64,000 nt of DNA from Eubacteriales bacterium (GCA_045580085.1 JAZNND010000059.1:2782-66781), one strand, 5' to 3'. Numbered from the stretch's first letter, positions 5,841 to 43,701 are shown. The notes: a model not told the origin generated them from the letters alone. Numbers and translations: made by a program.

Positions 5841-8800
5841 ATGAAGAAGAGAATCCTCAGTTTCTTGTTGGTTCTTTGCATGCTTCTTACCGCAATGCCG
5901 ATCTTTACCTTCGGCTCCGGTGCATCGGAAACAGCGGTGGAAGACGAAAACAATGAGCTCACCAAGAATGAAGACTCTAAAGCCGTGTCGAGCTTTTACG
6001 ATTATTACGTAACCGACGGGCTTGTGGCATTTTTCGATGCCTATGACACCAAGAGCACCACTCTTGATCTCGAGAATGGTAAGTGGTATGCAAAGGTTTA
6101 TAATGCATCCACCAAAGGTTTTGAAAAATCTACCGATGAGGGGCTTGTCGCTACCATTGGCGGCGGCGTCTTGGGTTCGACCACCGAGCCCGCTGAAGAA
6201 GGCGCAGAGCCCATCGTGAATACTACCGGTTGGGTAAAGGGCGATAAGGGCTTCTCTTATTTCACCAATCAATCCGTTGGTGCGAATAAGATCAGCTTGC
6301 CTCTTGCTCTCATTGCCTCCGATAGCTACACGGTTGAATTTGTCGGTTCCGTGAAGCTTCGTGAAATCCACGATGCAGAGCAAGAGACCGGTACGGTTGA
6401 AAAAACCGTTGCCGACGGTAAGGCTACCTATACTATCTCGGGCCTCACCCTCTTGACTCGTAACAACGGCACAACCGATTACACCAACCTCTGCTATTAT
6501 ACCGTAACCCTCAAGGGCGAAGCCAATGCAACGGTTGATCTTACGATCAACGGTTCCGCTGTCAGCGTAAAGCTTGACGGTGAGGGCAACGGCTCTTACA
6601 TGGCAAAGTGCACAGCAAAGCTTGACACTTATGTCATCGTAGCTCCCGAAAACGTTGAGTTGACCTTTACCAAGGATAAGACTCTCAACGGTCAGTACAT
6701 GTCTACCTCTGCGTTTGTATTCGGTACTTTGCACTGCACGCATTGGACCAATCTCATCGGCGACAACGCTTGGGGTAATGGCGCAGGTAAAACCCGTTGG
6801 TACACCGGTTCTTCCGACTGGGGAGTACATAACGGTACCGCAGGCAGCACTCAATACGGCGGTGCACTTAAGGACACTTCCTTCTTTGTGAACTATAATG
6901 ATCAGGCTGCTGTTTTGCGCGTTCAAAAGTCTAAACTTGATGCGGGTGAAAGCTATACCGTTTCTTATGGCACGAGCTCTACGTCCGTTTCCGGCGATAA
7001 GCCTTTTGCCAATTATAAGTTTGACCTTCTTTCCAACACCTGCGGTACGGCTTATGCGGTTCGTGTTTACAACCGCCATTTGACCGCAGATGAAAAGAAA
7101 CTCAATGACTTTGCCGACAAGATGATCCTCAACGACGTTGACTTTGGCGCCTTCAATGCACTTGAAGACAGATTGAAGGAAATGTACATCAAGTCCACCG
7201 AGGCTCTCACGCTTGATGCAGGCAACGAGGAGTTTACCAAAGCTCTTGACGGCGTACTTGATTATGCCGAAAAAGAAGCTGCCATGCGTGCTATGACCGA
7301 CTATGATAAGCTCTATGCCGGTGCTGACGGCAATCCTACCGCGAATGGCGGTAGCCTTGTGGCTCTCTTCTCTGCATACGGTGACAACAGTGCTTCGCTC
7401 GACCTTGTCAACAAGTCTTGGCGCGATAAGGTCGGTATGAATGATATCGTTTTCCAAGGTGCAATGTACGATGAGGCTACCGGTAAGGGTTATTGGAAGC
7501 TTCGCCAAGACGGCGGTGTCGGTTACGATATGAACTTTGACACTACCGGTAAAAACGGTACCTACAACTCCGGATCGGGCGTATATATGCAGCTTGAGCC
7601 TTCGCTCATCGCTTCTCCCGATTTTACCGTAGAGTATGTTGTAGCGTATGAGTACTTCACCTATCTTGACGGTTCTGTTTGCCCCGTCAATTTGAAGCTT
7701 ACCTATAACGAGTCTCCTGCCGAGACAATCGGTCTTTTGAAAAACTTCGTTTCCCGTACCGGTCCTATCGACGCTACCGGTGCAAGCCGCGGTACCCGTT
7801 GGTATGTTGCTAAACCCTCTACCGGTTGGCAGCAGTCCGGCTTTAACCATCAGCTCTGGGGCGATGTCCGTCCTGATGATGATATCTATTTGCAGTCCAT
7901 CACCCGTGACGAATCCGATATCACCGGTGGCAAGCAGGCTGTTTATGAAATCAATAAAAACGGAAGTATGGTATTGAAGGGCACCTACAAGTCCAACGCT
8001 GCCCAAGCCGGTGAGATCTATTACATCGGTTCCGATGCGGCAGGTCAGTCCTTCCAGCTCTTCCGCCAGATTCCTGTTTCCGCATATTCGATCCGTGTAT
8101 ATGATGCAGTTCTTACTTCTACGGAAATGCAACACAACCGCTTTGTCGACCTTGCCGCATACTGCGGTGCCGATATGACGGCGTACATGGCTCTTAGCAA
8201 AGAAGCACAGACGATTGTTGATAGCATGCTTGCCGGCAACGGCTTTGACCTCGATACCGAAGCATTTGAGGCAGCTCTTAAGACGGTTACCGATATCCTC
8301 GGTAATGACAGCGGTCTTGCTGACAGTCTCTATGTTACCGACGGTCTTACCATGCTTCTTGCCGCATACAGCGGCTTCAATACCGGCGCGATCGGCGGCA
8401 ACGGTGCTCCTATCAGCTGGTTCAACGGCGTACAGCAGGGCTCTTTTGCAACCCTCCGCGGCTCCGGATGGACGCTCAATGAGGATGGTGGTTTTACCAT
8501 CGTTAAGACTTGGGAAGAGTTCCAAAAGGATATCACCTTCGGTCTCTATCTCGATCAAAGCCTCCTTCCCACCGGCGGTTACACCGTAGAGCTTGTAGCG
8601 AACCCCGTTGGTGTTACCAACCCTGACGGCACTCGTTTTATCGATGACTTCTCTACCTACGGTCAGAACTATAACAACGGTTTTGCCATCGGTCCGATGC
8701 GTTGCTTGCAGTTCGTCTGCATGCGTCCTACCGGTAAAGACGGTCAGCTTGAAAAACGTTGGGTTTACCAAAAAGAAACCAATGCTTGGCATGCTTCCGG

Positions 8801-11800
8801 TTATAAGGCAAGATGGACCGATACCACTTGGAAAACCATCGGTCTTGACCAGATCCTTACTTACACGATCTCCATGACGCTTGAGGAAGATCTCACTTCC
8901 AACTATATCTTTAGTCAGGACTCTGTCAGAAAGGGATCTATCCAGATTCCCGCCGCACAGTATATTAATCCTATGGATACCGACCGTCAGTTCCAACTTA
9001 TGGTTGGTGTTGCGGGTACCATCTATGCGTGCCGTGTATACAACAGACCCTTGACCGATTCTGAAGTAAAGCAGAATCACATGGCCGACCTCGTATACTT
9101 CTACGAGATTGATACTACCTTCCTTGATTCCACCCTTTCCAGCATGTCCGACGCTTCCGCGCTTTATGACGCGTTTGCCGATATGGACTTCACCCTCTCC
9201 AAGGAGGATGCTCAGGAATACTTCGAATCCAAGACCGCGGCTATCTGGCTTACCTACAGCGGCTTCGGCGTTCGTAAGGACCTCACCGACGGTGTGCGTT
9301 TCTACTTCGACCTCAACCAAGACGGTATCGACGCTATGCTTACTGCCGGCTTTGGTCTTGAGATCGGTACGATCGTAAACGTTGGCAAGGATGCACTCCC
9401 TGTTCTCGATGATTACGGCTACGACTATAAGGTTCTTGCCTTTGATTCCATTGCAGGTAAGTACACTTCCTTCTTTACCGATGACACCACCTATGCGGTT
9501 ACCGTCCGTTATGAAAATGCGGATAAGCAAGCACTGCTTGCATCGCTCGGTGTGCGCGGATACGTTAAATTGATCAGCCCCGACGGCTCGGAGATGGTCT
9601 TCTATGCCGAGGTGGCAACAGACGCACCTACGAACCACTTCGAAGCGTTCTACTCAGTGAAAGAGAACGACAACCCCGCATTGGCAGACGATATGGAACT
9701 GGAGTCTTACGTAACGGACCGTATCGAATACTGCTATGACGATGTTTACGTTCATGTAGACGCCAACGCGCAAGGCGAGGGCGACGGCACTGCCGAAGCA
9801 CCCTTCGCGTCCTTTAATGACGGTTGGGAAAAGGCAAAAGAGCTGATGCTCTCCCTGACAAAGCCCACATATCTCTACCTGCAGACGGCAGACGGTGTAT
9901 ACGGTCTTTACGGTACACTCTCGCTCTCCGCAGAAGAGAAACCTTACGCATATTGTAACTTTATCATCATTTCCGAAAACGGCAACTCCATTTTGACTAC
10001 GAACATTGATATCAATTCCGGCGACTTTGTATACGAAGGCGACAACATTTATACCTATCAGTTCGAGCCGAATGCGGACGGTGAATATCCTGAGTTCCGT
10101 TATCTCTATGTAAACGACAGAATGGCGAACCTCTCCGTTTCCAGTGCTACCCGCGCGGTTGACGTTGACGGTATCTACAGAACCGCTGTAGAGCGTGAAT
10201 TCGATGCTGTTTACTACAATGCACAAATGCTGAGCGAATATGATGGCTTGCTTACGGTCGACTTTATGCCCGAGTCCTATGTAGGCCGTAGCGACCTTGA
10301 AACTTCCTTCGCTTATTATGCGGCTTATTTCGTCGCATTGAAGGATGTGGAAAAATTATTCAATGAGAAGCAACTGACCGAAATGACCATTCCCGATCAG
10401 AGCAAGGTGGCTCTCAATGGCGTTTACAGTGCTGCTTTTGAATATTACAAGCAGGCATATTTGGCATACGGTGTGTTGCAGCCTGTGGCTGTGATAGAAG
10501 GTCCTACTTCCGATGCATTCGCAGCGATGAAAGCACCTACCGATGCTAACGCTACCTATCGCACTTGGTTTGCAAAGATACAGACCTTCATGATCGATAA
10601 TAAGACCTATAACTATACGTTTACCGTTGATCAAACAACGGATATGAAGACCATCGGTAAGGTATATCTCGATATGGAGATGGTCGGCGATCTTTCTCAC
10701 ATGGTCGAAGAGGGCAGAGAGAGAATGCTCGCGTATGCGGAGCAGTTGCAGCTTGAGATCGATGCAGCACTTGAAGAAGCAAAGGCACTTTCGGAATATG
10801 CTAATGCCGAGGTTTCTTACGCAATTGAGCTTTGCAACTACTTCGCGAGCATCACCCAGAAATATCTGGATGAAAAGATGGAAGGTGTTTATAAGGCGGC
10901 TAAGGAAGCTTATATGAGTGCAGAGGCTGACCTGAATGCAGCACTTAAAGCTTACTTGGCAGCGGAAGAAGCTTATGCTATCGCTGAAGCTGCATATGAA
11001 GCAGCACTTGCCGCATTCGAAGCAGCTGAAGAATCCGAGAAGGAAGCTTTGGCAGCCGATCTTGCCGAAAAGCTTGCCGCTTATGAAAATGCCGCTATCG
11101 CGCTTGAGGAAACAAACGCAACCGGTGAGGCAGCCGCAGAAACGTATTCTACTGCATTTGCTAACTATGTCAAAGTAGGCATGGCTTATGAAGCTGCTAC
11201 CGCGCTTGACGAAGAAGACAATCCTCTCGGTATGGACGGTATCAAGGCTTTGCTGGAAGCAACCAACGAGGTGAGAGCCGAGGCAGAAACTGCCGCACTC
11301 CAAGCAACCAGCAATCTCGCCAGCGTACAGAAGGATTATGATGAAAAGAGCAAGTATATCTCTGAGATCAAGGACGAAGATCTTTGGGTACGCCATGCGC
11401 TCACGCAGTACATGATCGAGATGCACGTTGCTGCTCAGTGGGACTACAATATCATCCACATAACCGGTATTGACTACAACGATATCTTTGATTATGAGTA
11501 CTTGGGTGAGCAGACAACACAGGTAGCCGTTTACCTCGAAATGTCTGAGTATTCGAGGTTCAACATTCCTGCTAACTACACCTTTGTCGGTAGATACGTA
11601 TTCCTTAAGAATATTCTTGAATATGTAGATGCTGAGAACGAGTACTTCTACGATGAGGAAATCGGTAAGCTTTACTACTACACCGAAGAGGATATCAACG
11701 ACCTTAAGTTTGCATATCCTACCTCCGATTACATGTTTAAGTTCTATGACCTTAAGAATGTAACCATCGAGGGCATGCAGTTCACCGGTGTTGACGATAA

Positions 11801-12872
11801 CTTCCTTTCGGATAACGGTCACTGCGGCGGTCAGTCTGCTAGCGACTCTCGCTTCGGCGGATTCCCCGAAAGAAGTGCGATCTACATCAAGGGCTGCTAT
11901 GGCATGGAAATCGTTTACAACCAGTTCTATGACCTCGGCGTTGAGGGTATCACCTGCCGTGGTTGGATCCAAGATCTCACCATCGAAGGCAATACCTTTG
12001 AAAACATCGGTGCGGCTGCGATCCGTGTCGGCGATAACACTGCTGACTGGACGCCCGGCGTGGCCGGTAACTTGCGTGTTTCCATCATCGACAACTATGT
12101 AAACAACGCAGCTACCGAGTATCACCAGTCCTCCACCATTCAGATCCAATCCAACAAGGATTGCGTGATCCAGAACAACACCGTTATGAACACCTCCTAC
12201 ACGGCATTCTCGCTCGGTTGGAGATGGAGCACGGTTTCTTGGCAGAGAGGCGACGCTATCAACCAGGATAATATGGATATCTCCGGTAACTATATTACCC
12301 ACTTTATGACAGAGCTTGCCGACGGCGGTGCTATCTACATGCTTGGCGGTAACGCTGATATTTCGGATACCTCTTACTTCAACTTTATCTATGAGAACTA
12401 CATCCTGTTCTCCAACATTTCGGGTAACGGTCTTGGCGGTATGATCTGCGGTATCTACTTTGACGGATCTTGCACCAACTGGCATTGCTACTCCAATGTT
12501 GTTGTTGAGCAGTCTTACGGTGCTCACACGAGCGAGAACGATCACGATTACAGCGATGTATACGTGGAACAGCTCCGCAAACGCCGTAACGGTTCTACCT
12601 TCATTTACATCCAGCACATTTCTTCTCAGCTGACGTATAATATTTTGGTTGAAAACAACATCATTATTAACGTCAGAAGCAAGGATGACGATCAGGCATT
12701 GAAAGAAGTTTACAAGACCTACGTTGTTGCATCCCGTAATATCAAGGAAAGCGGCACTCGCTATATCCGCGATATTGACAGAATTCCTTCGATGGCTGAA
12801 AACATCATGTATGCCGCGGGTGCATTTGATTATCCCGGAGATCCTTCCGAACTTTACGGTAACGATTATTAA
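5841..12872 (+). CDS. Giant secreted protein: signal peptide, 3 LamG (Laminin_G_3-like) modules, beta-sandwich region, pectin-lyase-fold beta-helix interrupted by an Ala/Glu-rich helical insert
   Basis: AAAGGAG RBS before ATG 5841. The Sec-type N-terminus is MKKRILSFLLVLCMLLTAMPIFTFGSGA. There are three modules, each ending in an RVY(N/D)-(T/S)xxExxxN motif: AVRVYNRHLTADEKKLN at 7050-7120, SIRVYDAVLTSTEMQHN at 8082-8160, ACRVYNRPLTDSEVKQN at 9021-9105. A beta-helix cap-like VYVHVDANAQGEGDGTAEAPFASF lies near 9741. PbH1-like repeats (NVTIEGMQFTG, LTIEGNTFENIG, VSIIDNYV, CVIQNNTVMN) span 11760-12600. Confidence 0.8.
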   Translation: MKKRILSFLLVLCMLLTAMPIFTFGSGASETAVEDENNELTKNEDSKAVSSFYDYYVTDGLVAFFDAYDTKSTTLDLENGKWYAKVYNASTKGFEKSTDEGLVATIGGGVLGSTTEPAEEGAEPIVNTTGWVKGDKGFSYFTNQSVGANKISLPLALIASDSYTVEFVGSVKLREIHDAEQETGTVEKTVADGKATYTISGLTLLTRNNGTTDYTNLCYYTVTLKGEANATVDLTINGSAVSVKLDGEGNGSYMAKCTAKLDTYVIVAPENVELTFTKDKTLNGQYMSTSAFVFGTLHCTHWTNLIGDNAWGNGAGKTRWYTGSSDWGVHNGTAGSTQYGGALKDTSFFVNYNDQAAVLRVQKSKLDAGESYTVSYGTSSTSVSGDKPFANYKFDLLSNTCGTAYAVRVYNRHLTADEKKLNDFADKMILNDVDFGAFNALEDRLKEMYIKSTEALTLDAGNEEFTKALDGVLDYAEKEAAMRAMTDYDKLYAGADGNPTANGGSLVALFSAYGDNSASLDLVNKSWRDKVGMNDIVFQGAMYDEATGKGYWKLRQDGGVGYDMNFDTTGKNGTYNSGSGVYMQLEPSLIASPDFTVEYVVAYEYFTYLDGSVCPVNLKLTYNESPAETIGLLKNFVSRTGPIDATGASRGTRWYVAKPSTGWQQSGFNHQLWGDVRPDDDIYLQSITRDESDITGGKQAVYEINKNGSMVLKGTYKSNAAQAGEIYYIGSDAAGQSFQLFRQIPVSAYSIRVYDAVLTSTEMQHNRFVDLAAYCGADMTAYMALSKEAQTIVDSMLAGNGFDLDTEAFEAALKTVTDILGNDSGLADSLYVTDGLTMLLAAYSGFNTGAIGGNGAPISWFNGVQQGSFATLRGSGWTLNEDGGFTIVKTWEEFQKDITFGLYLDQSLLPTGGYTVELVANPVGVTNPDGTRFIDDFSTYGQNYNNGFAIGPMRCLQFVCMRPTGKDGQLEKRWVYQKETNAWHASGYKARWTDTTWKTIGLDQILTYTISMTLEEDLTSNYIFSQDSVRKGSIQIPAAQYINPMDTDRQFQLMVGVAGTIYACRVYNRPLTDSEVKQNHMADLVYFYEIDTTFLDSTLSSMSDASALYDAFADMDFTLSKEDAQEYFESKTAAIWLTYSGFGVRKDLTDGVRFYFDLNQDGIDAMLTAGFGLEIGTIVNVGKDALPVLDDYGYDYKVLAFDSIAGKYTSFFTDDTTYAVTVRYENADKQALLASLGVRGYVKLISPDGSEMVFYAEVATDAPTNHFEAFYSVKENDNPALADDMELESYVTDRIEYCYDDVYVHVDANAQGEGDGTAEAPFASFNDGWEKAKELMLSLTKPTYLYLQTADGVYGLYGTLSLSAEEKPYAYCNFIIISENGNSILTTNIDINSGDFVYEGDNIYTYQFEPNADGEYPEFRYLYVNDRMANLSVSSATRAVDVDGIYRTAVEREFDAVYYNAQMLSEYDGLLTVDFMPESYVGRSDLETSFAYYAAYFVALKDVEKLFNEKQLTEMTIPDQSKVALNGVYSAAFEYYKQAYLAYGVLQPVAVIEGPTSDAFAAMKAPTDANATYRTWFAKIQTFMIDNKTYNYTFTVDQTTDMKTIGKVYLDMEMVGDLSHMVEEGRERMLAYAEQLQLEIDAALEEAKALSEYANAEVSYAIELCNYFASITQKYLDEKMEGVYKAAKEAYMSAEADLNAALKAYLAAEEAYAIAEAAYEAALAAFEAAEESEKEALAADLAEKLAAYENAAIALEETNATGEAAAETYSTAFANYVKVGMAYEAATALDEEDNPLGMDGIKALLEATNEVRAEAETAALQATSNLASVQKDYDEKSKYISEIKDEDLWVRHALTQYMIEMHVAAQWDYNIIHITGIDYNDIFDYEYLGEQTTQVAVYLEMSEYSRFNIPANYTFVGRYVFLKNILEYVDAENEYFYDEEIGKLYYYTEEDINDLKFAYPTSDYMFKFYDLKNVTIEGMQFTGVDDNFLSDNGHCGGQSASDSRFGGFPERSAIYIKGCYGMEIVYNQFYDLGVEGITCRGWIQDLTIEGNTFENIGAAAIRVGDNTADWTPGVAGNLRVSIIDNYVNNAATEYHQSSTIQIQSNKDCVIQNNTVMNTSYTAFSLGWRWSTVSWQRGDAINQDNMDISGNYITHFMTELADGGAIYMLGGNADISDTSYFNFIYENYILFSNISGNGLGGMICGIYFDGSCTNWHCYSNVVVEQSYGAHTSENDHDYSDVYVEQLRKRRNGSTFIYIQHISSQLTYNILVENNIIINVRSKDDDQALKEVYKTYVVASRNIKESGTRYIRDIDRIPSMAENIMYAAGAFDYPGDPSELYGNDY

Positions 12873-20590: not shown

Positions 20591-23500
20591 ATGAAAAGAC
20601 TGCTTACCTTTTGCATGGCATGGATCTTATTGCTCGGCGCGTTGCCGTTCGCTGTCGGTGCAAAGGAGGATACCGGAACCCTTTTGACCGATGCCCGTTC
20701 GCTTTATGTTACGGACGGCTTGACGGTGCAATGCCAAGCTTATGACAACACCGCGCTCTCTGTGTCCTCTACCTGGCAGGGCGACACGGGGCATGTTGAC
20801 TTGATTGGCAACTGGGAGAAAAACGAGAACGGAAAAGGTCTTTCTTACGTTAAGAAAAACGTGAATTTTTGCGGTATTGGAATTCCCGCCGATTTGATCG
20901 GCGGCGGTGATTATACCATAGAAACGGTCATCACGCCTTTGGGTGTTATAGATAGCGAAACGGGGGATAGAAAGCAAGGTGCCTCCTCGCGCGATCTTGC
21001 GCTTCAAGTCGGACCTTTCAAGGCGTACGGCTATCCGAGCATGGATGGCGTAGATACCTCTCTCGCTTTGCGCTATTATTATGCCGCAAACGGCGGTTTT
21101 GCCGCAAACGGAAGCCACTATAGCACATGGAACAGCTTTTTGGCATACGGAACATCGGATGCGCTGACCTATACGATCCGTCACACCACGGACGGCAAAA
21201 GCTCTTGTTATCAAGTCCTTCATGACGGAACGGTAGCCAATGTTTTGAACATAGGGGAAGAGGAATACGTTCCCTTTGAACTGTCGGACGGAAGAGCACA
21301 GCTTTTCTGCTATTTTCCCATCAATGTGTATGCGGTGCGTGTTTATAATCGCGCTTTGAGCGCGGAAGAACGTGCGCAAAACCATTTCGCGGACCTGTTG
21401 CTTTATCACGGCATTGATCTGTCTTTGTTCTGGAATGATTTGACGGAAGAGGAAAAAACGTCTTTGATGCTTTCCGCCGCCGATATTTCCTTTAACGATG
21501 GTGCACAAGTGCTTGGCGCACATATTTCTGCTTATCTTTACGATAAAGAGGTGATCGGAGAAGAAAGCTTCCGTGCGATCGTAAAGCAGTATTCCTTGGA
21601 TCTTATGCCCTATCTTGCCGCACCGAACCGCGCATATGTGCGTGAGGCTCTTGCCTTTGTACCCTTGCGGGGGCATGCCGCAGGTGCGGTGCAAACTTTG
21701 CTTAACACGCTTTGCGCGGGTGAAGATGTAAAGCAAAAATTGCTGGCTTTTTCGCATTTTGATGCCATCTCGAGGGAAGAGCCGGAGATCAATGCTATCT
21801 TTACGGTCGATGCGGATTTGTTGGCTCTGCTCTCGGAGCTCTATACCGTTTCCTATGGAGCTCTTGTCGGTTCTGCCGATGTATATGGGAGTTTTGATGC
21901 ACTCACTCTGACCGAAGAGGGGAGAGCACCGCAAAGCGCCGCTGTTTACTATGCAAAGGAAGGCGATGAAGAGGGTTTTTCATATACCGTATATTGGAAT
22001 GAGGATCACCAAAACAAGAAAGATTACAAACAAAAGGTTCGCTTCCGCGGATTTTTGATCTTGACGGATTCCGAAGGCATGAAAGAGATCATTTATGTGA
22101 ATGCGGAAGAAAAATATGACTATTACGGTAACGAAAAGTTGCTTTCCGATCCTTCAATCTATACCGCCGCGCGTTACTTTGTCAGCGATTATACGGGTGA
22201 ATATATGCAGGCATACCGCTTTTACCATCATCCCGTTTTGCGTGAGGTACTCTTTTCATGCGGTGCTACTATTCCCACGCGAGATGAGGAATTTGCCGAT
22301 GCCGACCGCTTGACCGAGCTTCGCGATGCCCTCAAATCAGGGCTCGAAGAAGCAAAAACGGTGGAAAACGTGCTTTATACCGCATCCTCCTCCGCTATCT
22401 TGGGCGAAAAGAGTATTTGGGTGGAATATCTTGCCGATTCCGTGGCTTCGGATAAGCGCATTCGCCCCGCTTACATCTATTTTCCCACCGAGTATAATCC
22501 TACAAGAAAAACGCAGACCGAGCTAAAAAATGCCGGTGTTTATCGCGTGTTCTGCTATATCGGCATGCCGACAGGCACAGAGACCGTTCCGGGCTTAATG
22601 TGCGTACACGGCGGCGGTGGGCAAGCTTATATCCGCTATGTACAAGAGGCGGTCAACCACGGTTATGCGGCGATTGCCATTGATTGCGACGGCGAAACCA
22701 GACCGGATCCTACCGCAGCCGACGGAGGCAGTTACACCTTGGATTATCTCGGCAAAGCCAAAGACAGTCTTGCAGATTCTCAGCGCGATATCGACGAACA
22801 ATGGATGTATTATGTCCAAAGAGCGTTGATCTACGCCAATACCGTCTTGCGTTCTTTTGATCGGGTAGACGAGGATGCTGTCGGCATTACAGGCATTTCT
22901 TGGGGTGGGTTGACAACCACCATCGCCATCGGCTACGATGACAGATACGCGTTTGCCGTTCCCGTTTATCTTTCGGGCAATATGGATGAGAGTGTGGGCT
23001 CTTGGAGTGGCGATTTCTATCAAAAAGGGCTTTGGTATAACGATGCGCTTCTTTACGAAGTGGACACTCCCGTGCTGATCATCAACAGCGACGGCGACAA
23101 ATATGCCTCGCTCAATACCAATGCGCTCACCTATTTTGATCTTCCTAACGCCGAGATGTGCATCATTCACGGCTATGCTCACTCGCAACAGCGTGGCGCA
23201 TCTTTGTCGGAAATCTATATGTTTGGCAACAGTGTGACCGGTTATGGGGTGGATGCTATGCCCATGTTGAACCAAACACCCACCGAAGAGGACGGCAGAG
23301 ACTATATCCTCTCCTTTCTCTCAAACAGCTTGCTCTCGGATCATACTGCAACGCTTTACTATTTGACCGAGCCGATTTCGTACTTAGACGGCAAAATGCG
23401 TGTGGAGTGGAAATCGCAAGAGCTTACGGTTTCGGACGGCGATATCCATGTGACCGTTCCCGATGAGGCTTGCGTTTACTATATTTCTTTCACGGCGTAT

Positions 23501-23605
23501 AACAAGACCGAGGATAGAATGCCCACCGTTTATTTTGAATATGACGGCATCATCTACGGTTCAACGCCTTTGGTTACGATAGGTTCTAAAGGACTTTATT
23601 CTTAA
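20591..23605 (+). CDS. Secreted LamG-module protein with a C-terminal alpha/beta-hydrolase (acetyl-xylan-esterase/dienelactone-hydrolase-like) domain
   Basis: Signal peptide MKRLLTFCMAWILLLGALPFAVGA. The LamG module runs from LYVTDGLTVQCQAYD to VYAVRVYNRALSAEERAQNHFADL (21326-21412). The esterase part has CVHGGGGQAY, a nucleophile elbow GISWGG, plus SDGDKY and HGYAHS. Confidence 0.8.
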   Translation: MKRLLTFCMAWILLLGALPFAVGAKEDTGTLLTDARSLYVTDGLTVQCQAYDNTALSVSSTWQGDTGHVDLIGNWEKNENGKGLSYVKKNVNFCGIGIPADLIGGGDYTIETVITPLGVIDSETGDRKQGASSRDLALQVGPFKAYGYPSMDGVDTSLALRYYYAANGGFAANGSHYSTWNSFLAYGTSDALTYTIRHTTDGKSSCYQVLHDGTVANVLNIGEEEYVPFELSDGRAQLFCYFPINVYAVRVYNRALSAEERAQNHFADLLLYHGIDLSLFWNDLTEEEKTSLMLSAADISFNDGAQVLGAHISAYLYDKEVIGEESFRAIVKQYSLDLMPYLAAPNRAYVREALAFVPLRGHAAGAVQTLLNTLCAGEDVKQKLLAFSHFDAISREEPEINAIFTVDADLLALLSELYTVSYGALVGSADVYGSFDALTLTEEGRAPQSAAVYYAKEGDEEGFSYTVYWNEDHQNKKDYKQKVRFRGFLILTDSEGMKEIIYVNAEEKYDYYGNEKLLSDPSIYTAARYFVSDYTGEYMQAYRFYHHPVLREVLFSCGATIPTRDEEFADADRLTELRDALKSGLEEAKTVENVLYTASSSAILGEKSIWVEYLADSVASDKRIRPAYIYFPTEYNPTRKTQTELKNAGVYRVFCYIGMPTGTETVPGLMCVHGGGGQAYIRYVQEAVNHGYAAIAIDCDGETRPDPTAADGGSYTLDYLGKAKDSLADSQRDIDEQWMYYVQRALIYANTVLRSFDRVDEDAVGITGISWGGLTTTIAIGYDDRYAFAVPVYLSGNMDESVGSWSGDFYQKGLWYNDALLYEVDTPVLIINSDGDKYASLNTNALTYFDLPNAEMCIIHGYAHSQQRGASLSEIYMFGNSVTGYGVDAMPMLNQTPTEEDGRDYILSFLSNSLLSDHTATLYYLTEPISYLDGKMRVEWKSQELTVSDGDIHVTVPDEACVYYISFTAYNKTEDRMPTVYFEYDGIIYGSTPLVTIGSKGLYS

Positions 23606-35609: not shown

Positions 35610-35851
35610 AATACGGATCCCTTCCCCTTGCGCAAGGCAAGGTTTAAGAATTTGGTATAAGGTGTAGAGTATGGGGAAAAATATATATCACTTTACAAGG
35701 AAAGATAAAAGTCACCGAATGATTTTGGGTAGGTTCGCCGACATGCGGCTCCTCGGGTATTATAACACAAAAAAAGAAAAATGTCAATTCTTTTATGCTT
35801 TTCGGTGAAATTTGGGAAAATGTAAATAAAACAATTCAAAAAAGGATAAAA

Positions 35852-40316: not shown

Positions 40317-40334
40317 TTTGCAAGGAGCTCGTTT

Positions 40335-41435
40335 ATGCACGACGTATTTATATCTTACTCGCATAAGGACAGTCAAACGGCGACTATGGTTTTAAATATT
40401 TTGGAGCAAAACGGCATTAAATGTTGGATCGACTACCGAGATGCTATGCCGGGGGAGAGCTTCGCCGCCTCCATTGTACGCGCTATCAAGCAAAGCAAGT
40501 TTTTCGTATTGCTTTTATCGGGTGCCAGCGGCAGTTCACAGCACGTTTTGAACGAGATCAACTCTGCCGTAAATGCTTGCGTCACCATCATCCCTTTTAA
40601 GATCGACGGTGCCGAAATATCGGAGGGCATGGAGTATTATTTGGGAAAAACGCATTGGTTGGATGCGCTGACACCGCCCATTGAGGCGCACATCAAGTCT
40701 TTGCTCGAGGTGATTCAGCGTTATTCTGTGCCGCATGCGGTGGGAAAAGAAGAAAAAAGCCCTGTTTTTTCTCCCGTGCATCCGCAAGCCCCTGTTGTGC
40801 ATAAGCAAGAATGCCGCATGGTTAAATACGAAGAGCTGATCGAGCTTGGCTATACCGCGTCATCCATTGCTTTGCAATTGGTAGAAAACGATTATATCAA
40901 TTGCAACGGCATCGGCCAGGAAAATGAGGGAACGGCAGAGCAGTGGGAAATGTATTTGCAGGATAACAGCGATACCTTCCAATATTTGATCAACGGTAAA
41001 AATGAGATCGTCGGAGACTGGTCCATCGTTGCTTTGAATGATGAGATTTACGAACAAGCCGAAAAAGGCGAGCTTTTAGAAGCCGATATCGATGTGGATA
41101 AAACCGAAATGATTTGTTTCCCCGGTATTTATAACGGATATGTGCTCACCATTTCTGCCTTGCCCAATTACAGAAACACCAAGAACTATAATTTGCTCGT
41201 GGATTCCTTCGTGCGTCAGATTGAAGAGTTTTCGAACAACGGTATTTTCTTTCGCTCTTGGTGCATGAATGTGTTCAGCAAAGAGGTGGAGATGCTCGTT
41301 CGCGGCATGGGCTTCCGCTATGTCTGCGACAATAGGGTGTTTGGCAAAATATATACCTGCCCCTTCATCCCTTTGCCCAAGGTTCCGCTTTTGAAAAAAT
41401 ATCCCGATTTGGTGAAAAATTATGATGACATTTGA
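40335..41435 (+). CDS. TIR-domain protein with a C-terminal degenerate GNAT-like domain
   Basis: AAGGAG lies 7 nt before the ATG. TIR motifs: DVFISYSHKD, WIDYRDAMPGES (BB-loop-like), FFVLLLS, SQHVLNEI (matches plant/bacterial SxWCLxEL, with Glu74 at 40554-40556), IIPFKIDG. The C-terminal ~200 aa resemble a GNAT fold but lack the RxxGxG motif. Confidence 0.85.
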   Translation: MHDVFISYSHKDSQTATMVLNILEQNGIKCWIDYRDAMPGESFAASIVRAIKQSKFFVLLLSGASGSSQHVLNEINSAVNACVTIIPFKIDGAEISEGMEYYLGKTHWLDALTPPIEAHIKSLLEVIQRYSVPHAVGKEEKSPVFSPVHPQAPVVHKQECRMVKYEELIELGYTASSIALQLVENDYINCNGIGQENEGTAEQWEMYLQDNSDTFQYLINGKNEIVGDWSIVALNDEIYEQAEKGELLEADIDVDKTEMICFPGIYNGYVLTISALPNYRNTKNYNLLVDSFVRQIEEFSNNGIFFRSWCMNVFSKEVEMLVRGMGFRYVCDNRVFGKIYTCPFIPLPKVPLLKKYPDLVKNYDDI

Positions 41436-42036
41436 TACCGTTACCGTTCGTCCCGCACAAGCAGGGGACGATATCACAAAAATTGCCCGTTACATTCATC
41501 TGACGGATCCTTATATTTATCCTACCGTGACGGAGTCTGCGGAGGATCCCTCTTGGATCTCTCTTGTCGCCGCATGTTTTTCGGATGAAAAAAACATCTA
41601 TTTCCGAGACAGAATCTGGGTTGCTGAGAAAAATAACGCAGAGATCGTCGGTGTTCTGTGCGCCATTGAGTGCGGTGACGGCGATTTGACCTTTTCGGCA
41701 AACAAACCGATCCCGCCCACCTTGCGTGAGGGGGTTTTGCGCGTGGAGGAGGGATACTATCGGCCCTTAATAGCAGAGAGCCGCGATTTCGAGGGCTATA
41801 ACATCGTCAATCTTTGCACAGAACCCGAAACGCGCGGAAGCGGTGTCGGAACCAAGCTTTTAACGGCTTTTCTCAATCGCGTAGCGGGAGAAACGGTTCA
41901 TTTAGACGTTATTCAAAACAACGTTCACGCTATTCATCTTTACGAAAAACTTGGCTTTCGCATTACCTCTTCTTATAACGGTTTTGGCAAGGACGGCGTG
42001 GATGTCCCTTGCTTTCATATGGTTCGCTCGGTATGA
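41422..42036 (+). CDS. GNAT family N-acetyltransferase
   Basis: Overlaps the TIR gene by 14 nt. Motif A is NLCTEPETRGSGVGTKLL and motif B is HAIHLYEKLGFRI. Confidence 0.85.
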   Translation: MMTFDTVTVRPAQAGDDITKIARYIHLTDPYIYPTVTESAEDPSWISLVAACFSDEKNIYFRDRIWVAEKNNAEIVGVLCAIECGDGDLTFSANKPIPPTLREGVLRVEEGYYRPLIAESRDFEGYNIVNLCTEPETRGSGVGTKLLTAFLNRVAGETVHLDVIQNNVHAIHLYEKLGFRITSSYNGFGKDGVDVPCFHMVRSV

Positions 42037-42079
42037 AAAGCCTTCCTTTTGGTTAAGATAGCCAAGAGGAGAAGCCGGA

Positions 42080-42772
42080 ATGCGAGAATTAAAATCATGT
42101 AAAAATGCTCCGGACGTTTTTATGTCGGGGCATTCTTTTTTTGCGTGCTTGTTTCACAGTCACGCCTTTCGTACGTTGGTAAGTCTTTATATCGGAACTT
42201 TTTTTCAAGCGGGATATGCTATATTCAATTTAATCGGTACTCTTTTTTACGGTTCGCCTTGGTTGTATGCGGCAACTTTTTACTCTGTTGTGCTGGTTTT
42301 TGCCCGCATTTATCTGATCTATACCTATCGTCACACCGATAAGAGAAATTGCAGTGAGGCGAAGCGGTTTAAACGTTCCGCAGGGCTTTTTATGATATTG
42401 CTTGCTTTTGGACTCTTGTTTATGATATCCTTGCCGTTTTACCGTAGCAAAAGAGAGGGATACAATGTTCTTTTTACGCTCGTATATGCCATCTATGCCG
42501 TATTGAGTGTGCTGTTTTCTGCGATAGGTATTATTCGCTTGCGCCATGTGGGTACACCGGTTCTTTCTGCTGCCAAAGTCATCAGCTTTGCCGGTGCATC
42601 GGCATCGGTTCTCAATCTGCAAAACTCATTGCTTCCTGTTTTTCAAAAAAACGGTCAATTTTATCGCTTTTGTCATGTCGCGCTCGGTAGCAGTGCTGTG
42701 TTGCTTCTCGGGGTATTTGGGATTTTCTTTCTTCGAAAAAAGCATGTGTATAAAAACTATTTTTCAGAATAA
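42080..42772 (+). CDS. Uncharacterised 6-TM membrane protein
   Basis: AGGAGA lies 8 nt before the ATG. Six hydrophobic segments are visible by eye. I recognise no family signature. Confidence 0.6.
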   Translation: MRELKSCKNAPDVFMSGHSFFACLFHSHAFRTLVSLYIGTFFQAGYAIFNLIGTLFYGSPWLYAATFYSVVLVFARIYLIYTYRHTDKRNCSEAKRFKRSAGLFMILLAFGLLFMISLPFYRSKREGYNVLFTLVYAIYAVLSVLFSAIGIIRLRHVGTPVLSAAKVISFAGASASVLNLQNSLLPVFQKNGQFYRFCHVALGSSAVLLLGVFGIFFLRKKHVYKNYFSE

Positions 42773-42812: not shown

Positions 42813-42840
42813 TTGACATTTTGGAAAAAAATGCTATAAT
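42813..42840 (+). promoter_or_regulatory. Putative promoter of the CpsB-type phosphatase gene
   Basis: TTGACA (42813-42818), 16-nt spacer, TGcTATAAT (-10 at 42835-42840). Confidence 0.5.
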
Positions 42841-43672: not shown

Positions 43673-43701
43673 TTGACAAAATAGGATAATTGTGCTATAA
43701 T
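43673..43701 (+). promoter_or_regulatory. Consensus sigma-A promoter of yloV
   Basis: TTGACA (43673-43678), 17-nt spacer, TGcTATAAT (-10 at 43696-43701). Confidence 0.6.

Follow-up and report, generated by a model that had tools for sequence, protein, structure and literature searches.

What does a bacterial TIR domain do when it is joined to a second domain with an acetyltransferase fold, and when the next gene encodes an acetyltransferase as well? This question is raised by a locus in a 64,000-nucleotide stretch of DNA from an Eubacteriales bacterium (GCA_045580085.1, JAZNND010000059.1:2782-66781), hereafter the window. The first-pass annotation had proposed that three consecutive genes at 40335-42772, encoding a TIR-(pseudo)GNAT fusion, a GNAT acetyltransferase, and a protein with six transmembrane helices (6-TM protein), form an uncharacterized NAD-linked defence or signalling cassette. 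We refer to the fusion protein as TIR-X, in which X is the C-terminal domain with the GNAT fold. The functional unit consists of two genes, those of TIR-X and its cognate GNAT (40335-42036), and is self-contained and co-inherited. We consider it possible, with a probability of roughly 45%, that this pair is a TIR-effector module regulated by a pseudo-dimer of X and GNAT and following an immune or stress-suicide logic.

TIR-X has more than 120 full-length homologues with 53-87% identity, mainly from metagenome-assembled genomes (MAGs) of herbivore and gut Clostridia, plus Treponema. It is present in 16 of the 185,579 species representatives, and one more homologue comes from a Treponema MAG, which belongs to another phylum. 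The GNAT gene lies immediately downstream of TIR-X in all 23 loci (16 of 16 species-representative genomes and seven further annotated loci). The two genes of the window overlap by 14 nt, as had been annotated, which implies translational coupling. Overlaps of 14 to 20 nt are found in 8 of the 16 genome loci, the remainder showing either an over-extended start of the longest open reading frame (ORF) or a gap of 2 nt; stop/start overlaps also occur at loci L017, L018, L021, L027, L028, and L030. In addition, all ORFs within 5 kb of the pair were clustered over 21 non-redundant loci, and no neighbour family besides GNAT appeared in more than three of them. Co-occurrence, which had been suggested as a check of the cassette, was therefore seen for TIR-X and GNAT (23 of 23 loci) but not for the 6-TM gene. 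Across 22 loci, the divergence of TIR-X tracks that of GNAT (r = 0.88 for pairwise identities), with the GNAT evolving faster (mean identity of 39% vs. 62% for TIR-X). Finally, single-chain TIR-X-GNAT fusions exist (P0129, P0136, and P0138), in which X and GNAT are joined by linkers of approximately 1-40 residues. The fusion P0129 was found on three independent metagenome contigs (L051:2341-4017, 558 aa; L052; and L053). On L051, it adjoins rpsU and genes for a Ham1-like ITPase, an SNase-domain protein, and HU.

The N-terminal domain of TIR-X carries the complete TIR signature that had been described, with DVFISYSHKD at residues 3-12, WIDYRDAMPGES at 31-42, FFVLLLS at 56-62, SQHVLNEI at 68-75, and IIPFKIDG at 84-91. 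It matched the Pfam families TIR_2 (77.4 bits; cutoff 28) and TIR (45.9 bits; cutoff 21.3). Full-length TIR-X was modelled by AlphaFold2 (AF2) with a predicted local distance difference test score (pLDDT) of 82. The best Foldseek match of the TIR model was the TIR domain of SARM1 (target-normalised template modelling score, TM-score, of 0.77-0.80; root-mean-square deviation of 2.5-2.7 Å; 28% identity). Foldseek also paired the domain with the TIR of the Argonaute-associated system SPARTA, the match being limited to the TIR part. As modelled, the N-terminal domain is a flavodoxin-like TIR fold of the SARM1 type. Glu74 aligned with the glutamate of the S-x-W-x-x-x-E motif of TIR-STING and of the CRISPR-associated NADase Cat1 (6wt6 and 9mud), and it was invariant in 38 of 38 homologues. 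We take it to be the catalytic glutamate of the TIR alpha-C helix, equivalent to E642 of SARM1. The stretch SQHVLNEI had been equated with the SxWCLxEL helix of NAD-cleaving TIR domains; the glutamate is indeed retained, but the tryptophan of the motif, four positions before it, is His70. This position is His in 33 and Gln in 5 of the 38 homologues. The nearest TIR sequences were SAVED-TIR (PADLOC, 6.9e-13), TIR-STING, and Cat1, which are signal- or ligand-activated NADase effectors. From its sequence, the TIR domain of TIR-X is predicted to be an NAD+-cleaving effector in which the catalytic Glu is kept.

The linker between the TIR and X domains had a pLDDT below 50, and its mean pairwise identity was 11%, compared with 65% for each of the two domains. 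The public gene call of the TIR-X protein (P0001, 349 aa) begins at Met18, 17 codons late. This start removes 40335-40385 of the window and with it the conserved first strand, MHDVFISYSHKD, which is part of the TIR domain in the alignment of 38 sequences. The public calls are also slightly short for the 6-TM protein (216 vs. 230 aa) and the GNAT (203 vs. 204 aa).

The X domain matched no Pfam, NCBIfam, or PADLOC model, and a PDB profile search with its sequence gave a marginal match alone (8p49_A, E = 0.36). Its fold was evident from structure. Modelled alone by AF2, X reached a pLDDT of 91 and a predicted TM-score of 0.87. It had 215 matches among PDB folds at E<=1e-3, and the 50 listed were all GNAT-family acetyltransferases. 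Among the matches listed, the TM-score ranged from 0.45 to 0.72 (target-normalised) at 9-16% identity, and they included Naa60, Naa30, Ard1, 3d8p, and ItaT (7byy). The acetyl-CoA loop and the general-acid Tyr are missing. At the position of motif A, the homologues read Y-R-N-M/T-K-N-Y, with R280 in 38 of 38 and glycine at neither of the two glycine positions; the general-acid site reads 'LV' instead of the usual 'LY'. A canonical acetyl-CoA loop was found in one of 150 representatives of the X family. Near-invariant across the family are G199, W204, G227, W229, and G245. We conclude that X is a GNAT by fold only and a pseudo-enzyme, and the earlier label of (pseudo)GNAT is justified by the GNAT fold without an acetyl-CoA loop or catalytic Tyr. 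X is predicted to be a regulatory or sensor pseudo-enzyme and the docking partner of the GNAT. Two other readings of X were considered and set aside. A search against viral structures returned 36 GNAT matches, but these are generic phage GNATs, and the idea of a viral structural mimic of X was dropped. A recent duplication of the partner GNAT was ruled out by an hhalign probability of 0.6%, so the two are related by fold only.

The protein encoded downstream is a canonical GNAT, as had been stated. It matched Acetyltransf_7 (49 bits) and Acetyltransf_1 (44.7 bits). Among 23 GNAT partners, conservation reaches 90% or more at R138, G141, and G143 of the acetyl-CoA loop, and Y174 of the LY-x-K-x-GF motif never varies. 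The partner GNAT is predicted from these residues to be catalytically competent. Its nearest solved relatives were 4m85, RimI, Naa50, and Ard1 (Naa/Ard1 N-terminal acetyltransferases), of which the closest, 4m85, is an uncharacterised acetyltransferase of S. aureus. The subfamily has an invariant N-terminal T-D-P-Y-I-Y-P (residues 28-34) and two invariant cysteines, C132 in beta-4 and C197. Extra, unrelated GNAT genes lie within approximately 1 kb of the pair at three loci (L028:7474-7968, L029:12329-12817, and L030:11771-12670), one of them fused to a PNPOx-like domain. As Clostridia have many GNATs, the extra copies near the pair may be coincidence.

How might a TIR domain, a pseudo-GNAT, and a GNAT work together? 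MshD (mycothiol synthase) and N-myristoyltransferase are tandem GNAT/pseudo-GNAT enzymes. By analogy with their tandem GNATs, X and the partner would dock as a GNAT/pseudo-GNAT pair, and this pair, as a single unit with acetyltransferase or ligand-binding function, would serve as sensor or regulator. It would be tied to the N-terminal TIR by the flexible linker. The trigger would be a change in the state of the unit, brought about by the arrival of a substrate or target, the loss of acetylation, or the binding of a foreign protein. The TIR domains might then be freed to self-associate and hydrolyse NAD+. The loss of NAD+ would arrest the cell as abortive infection or stress suicide, as in TIR-SAVED, TIR-STING, Cat1, and SPARTA. 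In MshD and N-myristoyltransferase, to which enzyme/pseudo-enzyme heterodimers may be added for comparison, a cofactor-competent GNAT is likewise paired with a GNAT-fold module lacking the acetyl-CoA loop. The linkers of 1-40 residues in the X-GNAT fusions fit such a tandem arrangement. In contrast to these enzymes, X and GNAT are usually separate polypeptides, they are not recent duplicates of each other, and X carries an extra output domain.

The wider X family bears on this proposal. A search of 1.84 billion representative proteins with an X profile gave 891 clusters, 509 of them at E<=1e-10. The best 150 of the 891 comprised 22 TIR-X proteins, 33 proteins of X alone, and 95 with other N-terminal regions. 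In the 95, Pfam identified TIR_2 (8), Trans_reg_C winged helix-turn-helix (wHTH; 8), DUF4145 (5), Pkinase (4), SIR2_2 (2), Trypsin_2 (2), and CHAT (2) domains, as well as HEPN_Swt1, SLFN_AlbA_2, HD_3, Metallophos, and Sel1; approximately 60% had no Pfam match. The 95 are X proteins unflagged by the TIR profile, and their TIR_2 domains are divergent ones. PADLOC matched the N-termini fused to X with effectors of ThsA, Dsr1, LmuA, RT-protease, PD-T4-6, and an endonuclease of the cyclic-oligonucleotide-based antiphage signalling system (CBASS), and it never covered X itself. Interchangeable effector N-termini such as these are what conflict systems typically show, and the fusion of X elsewhere to SIR2, HEPN, CHAT, trypsin, Schlafen, and kinase domains lends weight to a conflict or immune module.

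Some of these relatives keep the partner. At L021, a kinase-X gene is followed by an overlapping GNAT gene homologous to that of the window (2e-22), and single-chain kinase-X-GNAT and wHTH-X-GNAT fusions were found. Because the X and GNAT core also occurs with kinase and wHTH N-termini, the specifically NAD-linked role that had been suggested for the GNAT is unlikely. Others have no adjacent GNAT. A SIR2-X gene (L022:5001-6506) lies between TerL-nuclease/portal remnants and a restriction-modification (RM) system of ResIII and an N6_N4 methyltransferase; a trypsin-X gene (L023:4557-6275) is preceded by a Trypco1 gene; and a stand-alone X gene (L025:3817-4473) lies between dnaN and rpsF. A broader proposal covers the whole family. 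X, usually with a dedicated GNAT, may represent an unrecognised, widespread class of acetyltransferase-based sensors or regulators that arm interchangeable effectors (TIR, SIR2, HEPN, caspase-like CHAT, trypsin-like, Schlafen, HD, kinase, and wHTH). The pair of the window would then be the TIR-armed immune type, in which NAD+ depletion is gated by acetylation or by acetyl-CoA/substrate occupancy of the GNAT/pseudo-GNAT dimer. We offer this generalisation tentatively and regard it, as a whole, as rather doubtful.

We compared the pair with described systems. It most resembles the sensor-fused TIR effectors, namely TIR-SAVED (CBASS Cap12-type), TIR-STING, Cat1 (CARF-TIR, type III CRISPR), and the TIR-APAZ of SPARTA, which likewise consist of an N-terminal TIR with the catalytic Glu, a linker, and a C-terminal regulatory domain. 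These effectors are also its nearest TIR sequences and structures, and the expected logic is oligomerisation followed by NAD+ depletion. The C-terminus of TIR-X, however, has a GNAT fold rather than SAVED, STING, CARF, or APAZ; its obligate partner is an acetyltransferase; and it does not lie in a defence island. Neither a cyclase nor Cas10 nor an Argonaute accompanies TIR-X, and there was no cyclase or Argonaute in the window or the related loci. TIR-X/GNAT is thus most like the sensor-fused TIR effectors, yet it is a member of none.

TIR-X matches ThsB of Thoeris weakly, through the generic TIR core only (PF08937, 25.4 bits against a cutoff of 21.2; PADLOC ThsB, 1e-9). It scored 24 bits against a cutoff of 220 with the NCBIfam model of type III Thoeris, and the Thoeris and retron-TIR models of NCBIfam were all far below their cutoffs. 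No ThsA-type effector (SIR2-SLOG, Macro-TM, or caspase-like) was present in the window or in the 21 loci. In the literature searched, the nearest concept is that of modular conflict systems, catalogued by comparative genomics, with swappable effector domains. DndF, for example, has variable N-terminal HEPN, NERD, kinase, GNAT, and wHTH domains (PMC10853773), and the interchangeable N-termini of such systems (HEPN, kinase, wHTH, SIR2, TIR, and proteases) are the same as those placed here on a conserved core. In our case, X with or without GNAT takes the place of a DndF or STAND NTPase core, and X does not match Pfam DUF4338, the GNAT noted on DndF.

The statement that none of the known TIR partners is nearby was borne out for SIR2, SLOG, Macro, STING, SAVED, cyclase, Argonaute, and reverse transcriptase. 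PADLOC gave matches to the cassette at the level of the TIR domain alone. A pairing of TIR with GNAT was not found described in PADLOC or in the full-text literature searched, some of the whole-word queries being possibly too strict. In agreement with the earlier view, no known system type fits TIR-X/GNAT, whether Thoeris, CBASS, SPARTA, or the GNAT toxin-antitoxins.

Several observations weigh against an immune or suicide module. First, NADase activity is not assured, since the Trp four positions before Glu74 is replaced by His or Gln. Second, X occurs without an adjacent GNAT in SIR2-X, trypsin-X, and X alone, so the docking model is not general for the X family. Third, the genomic setting is that of the core chromosome. 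The window contains genes for rhamnose catabolism, NusA/IF-2, an ECF transporter, PBP1, envelope glycosylation, GAPDH, FakA, and PFL, and the settings of TIR-X in the window and nine annotated relatives are core-chromosomal (spoIIIA, tRNA synthetases, rpsU, FakA, and glycoside hydrolases). The caveat that this is no obvious defence island was well founded, and the pair, moreover, evolves no faster than the housekeeping genes beside it. Ten flanking genes at 30.1-47.1 kb were tested with PADLOC without a match. Mobile elements or known defence genes were not found beside the TIR-X loci, with two partial exceptions (Treponema and L016). In conservation, TIR-X is on a par with its housekeeping neighbours (87% identity vs. 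89% for FakA), its similarity is largely clade-wise, as expected of vertical descent, and the GC content and third-position GC content of the pair agree with those of the flanking genes. A tblastn search with X found no copy among 72,556 plasmids or 50,697 phages, and a pattern scan of IMG/VR found none either. A recent transfer was considered, and no support for it was found in composition.

The core settings, the housekeeping-like conservation, and the absence from phages and plasmids keep a physiological role as a serious rival. The pair would be a regulator of herbivore-gut Clostridia rather than an immune system, and the acetyl-CoA or acetylation status read by X and GNAT would control NAD+ turnover or an NAD-derived signal, for example in dormancy, entry into sporulation, or redox balance. 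The wHTH-X and kinase-X proteins would be ordinary one-component-like transducers. The housekeeping settings at the TIR-X loci examined, conservation equal to that of FakA and the small export protein, clade-structured identities without a compositional anomaly, and the lack of phage, plasmid, or viral copies all agree with it. So do the stand-alone X between dnaN and rpsF and the fact that Trans_reg_C wHTH and divergent TIR_2 are the commonest Pfam-identified N-termini among the 95, with eight each. Against this role, the pair is very thinly spread (16 of 185,579 species representatives, plus the Treponema MAG homologue), and X is fused elsewhere to suicide-type effectors (SIR2, HEPN, CHAT, Schlafen, and trypsin), in some cases within RM or prophage islands. 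Moreover, to our knowledge, bacterial TIRs with the catalytic Glu come almost solely from immunity or virulence. We judge the physiological role unlikely but well worth holding against the immune reading.

Two defence-like neighbours, and only two, were seen at the TIR-X loci. At the Treponema locus, 4.4 kb from the pair, L018:8928-11681 (-) encodes a 917-aa protein of TIR_2, NPHP3_N (NACHT-like), and TPR domains, probably a STAND-type immune receptor. In an Acutalibacteraceae MAG, L016:8028-9896 (+) lies directly upstream of the TIR-X/GNAT pair and encodes a 622-aa protein with an N-terminal TIR domain (SKWxxxE), one transmembrane helix, and leucine-rich repeats at the C-terminus, an architecture like that of Toll-like receptors, here in a bacterium. 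Taken together, the sparse distribution, the Treponema copy, and these two neighbours point toward defence.

A further alternative keeps the immune function but changes the signal. As in CBASS or type III CRISPR signalling, infection would cause the GNAT to make an acetylated small molecule, and X, as a pseudo-enzyme with its binding pocket retained, would be the receptor of this product and activate the fused effector (TIR here, kinase or wHTH in other members). The TIR domain is closest to the messenger-activated effectors SAVED-TIR, TIR-STING, and Cat1, and TIR-X shares their layout of an N-terminal effector, a flexible linker, and a C-terminal ligand-type domain. In addition, effectors are swapped on a constant receptor domain X, the enzyme and the pseudo-enzyme have one fold, and the near-invariant glycines and tryptophans of X (G199, W204, G227, W229, and G245) suggest a pocket. 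However, generator and receptor share one chain in several lineages, and such fusions, with their very short linkers, are more readily explained by a stable complex than by a diffusible signal. No GNAT adjoins SIR2-X, trypsin-X, or stand-alone X, and we know of no acetylated immune messenger. We consider this alternative improbable.

Slightly less probable again is a toxin-antitoxin (TA)-like addiction module. The GNAT would be a toxin, acetylating for example aminoacyl-tRNA or another essential target, and would be neutralised by heterodimerisation with X, which replaces the second toxin protomer; the TIR, wHTH, or kinase domain would add regulation or a second toxicity. GNAT dimerisation is central to how TA modules of GNAT and ribbon-helix-helix (RHH) proteins work. 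The type II modules of this kind (TacAT, AtaRT, KacAT, and ItaRT) likewise have two overlapping genes with the GNAT downstream, and the order and overlap of our pair mimic their neutraliser upstream, toxin downstream, and coupled translation. The likeness of wHTH-X to a DNA-binding plus neutralising domain, the faster evolution of the GNAT relative to TIR-X, and the presence of ItaT (7byy) among the fold matches of X also speak for it. In contrast to these modules, the upstream protein is a 366-aa TIR plus pseudo-GNAT without an RHH or DUF1778 antitoxin domain. The partner GNAT is RimI/NAT-like by sequence and nearest to 4m85, RimI, and Naa/Ard1, with TacT, AtaT, KacT, and ItaT outside the best 60 of 149 structure-library matches. 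Stable single-chain X-GNAT fusions are hard to square with an antitoxin that is labile, X also occurs where no GNAT is present, and the pair shows no plasmid or prophage association.

The third gene of the proposed cassette encodes a protein with four strong and two weaker hydrophobic segments, consistent with the six transmembrane helices that had been called. It has its own AGGAGA ribosome-binding site (RBS) as described, and the gap to the GNAT gene is 43 nt rather than 44. The protein matched no Pfam, NCBIfam, or PADLOC family and had only three matches among 5.8 billion proteins. Its gene has a GC content of 41%, compared with 45-49% for the TIR-X/GNAT pair. It lies beside the pair in 2 of the 21 non-redundant loci, namely the window and L027, which is syntenic with the window across ten flanking genes. 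This housekeeping synteny indicates that the retained 6-TM arrangement reflects recent common ancestry. The 6-TM gene is the fastest-diverging syntenic gene between the two (60% identity). The next-closest relative (70% identity) has a wholly different neighbourhood, without the 6-TM gene beside the pair, and none of the 16 species-representative loci has a 6-TM, small-export, esterase, or CpsB gene beside it. A three-gene cassette, in which the 6-TM protein acts with TIR-X and GNAT as a membrane effector or anchor, is very improbable: one strand, a short gap, its own RBS, no promoter or terminator between the genes, and an order retained in the closest relative L027 stand against its absence beside the pair in 19 of 21 loci, the next-closest relative included, three homologues vs. 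hundreds of clusters for TIR-X, the fastest divergence and a lower GC content, and a synteny with L027 that spans ten flanking housekeeping genes. Though adjacent and probably co-transcribed, the 6-TM gene is a neighbour specific to its lineage and does not belong to the module.

The same holds upstream. A link of the pair to the small-export or esterase genes was ruled out, as these are present only in the syntenic L027; they are mere neighbours. None of 20 metagenome loci with small-export homologues carries TIR-X, and the closest relative in a metagenome scan for this chromosomal position had 62% identity.

The small-export gene ends 18 nt before TIR-X, and TIR-X has no promoter of its own, as had been noted; the promoter scan found no site on the + strand with at least 10 of 12 matches at 36.8-42.8 kb. 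There was also no strong promoter or terminator within 40335-42772. The consensus promoter of the following gene was verified and sets the downstream limit of the transcription unit. Further perfect 12/12 sigma-70 promoters with an extended TG lie at 35759-35787 (-) and 43673-43701 (+), so that three such promoters fall within 8.5 kb. Since none as strong occurs between approximately 36.8 and 42.8 kb, the genes from GAPDH to 6-TM may use weak or upstream promoters. Elsewhere in the window, the ORFs at 5841-12872 (+; 2343 aa), 20591-23605 (+; 1004 aa), and 345-1616 (423 aa) had no Pfam family at E<=1e-5 and possibly encode large surface or secreted proteins. The three ORFs lie where the earlier annotation had placed them, and the features of the locus are given in Table 1.

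Table 1. Positions of genes, domains, and signals at the TIR-X/GNAT locus, counted from the first nucleotide of the window
Feature	Position	Strand	Remarks
Shine-Dalgarno AAGGAG of TIR-X gene	40322-40327	+	ATG 7 nt further on; read from sequence
TIR-X gene	40335-41435	+	366 aa; TIR, disordered linker, and GNAT-fold domain without cofactor motif; ORF and Pfam
TIR domain, residues 1-132	40335-40730	+	Predicted NAD+-cleaving output domain
Glu74 codon (GAG)	40554-40556	+	Predicted catalytic glutamate; alignment to TIR NADases
Interdomain linker, residues 133-157	40731-40805	+	Disordered; sequence and length hypervariable
X domain, residues 158-366	40806-41432	+	GNAT fold without acetyl-CoA P-loop or general-acid Tyr
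Degenerate motif A of X, Y279-R-N-T-K-N-Y285	41169-41189	+	GNATs have R/Q-x-x-G-x-G/A there
Overlap of TIR-X stop and GNAT start	41422-41435	+	14 nt; read from sequence
Partner GNAT acetyltransferase gene	41422-42036	+	204 aa; ORF and Pfam
Acetyl-CoA pyrophosphate-binding loop of partner GNAT, R138-G-S-G-V-G143	41833-41850	+	Canonical; read from sequence
AGGAGA RBS of 6-TM gene	42067-42072	+	7 nt ahead of ATG
Membrane protein gene, about six transmembrane helices	42080-42772	+	230 aa; lineage-specific, outside the conserved module
Sigma-70 consensus promoter of next gene (cpsB-like)	42813-42840	+	12/12 match, extended TG

The regulators of bacterial TIR NADases of which we know are nucleotide-messenger sensors (SAVED, STING, and CARF), Argonautes, and STAND NTPases. 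If the TIR-X/GNAT pair serves immunity or suicide, these modes of control would be extended by acetyltransferase chemistry or by a GNAT/pseudo-GNAT receptor. A function would then be assigned to an unannotated family of approximately 900 protein clusters, and dozens of SIR2-, HEPN-, protease-, and kinase-armed relatives would become candidates. Should the pair instead be a physiological switch, a bacterial TIR with catalytic competence would, unusually, serve in the housekeeping NAD+/acetyl-CoA signalling of gut anaerobes. Whichever reading holds, the unit of two genes is small, self-contained, and open to testing.

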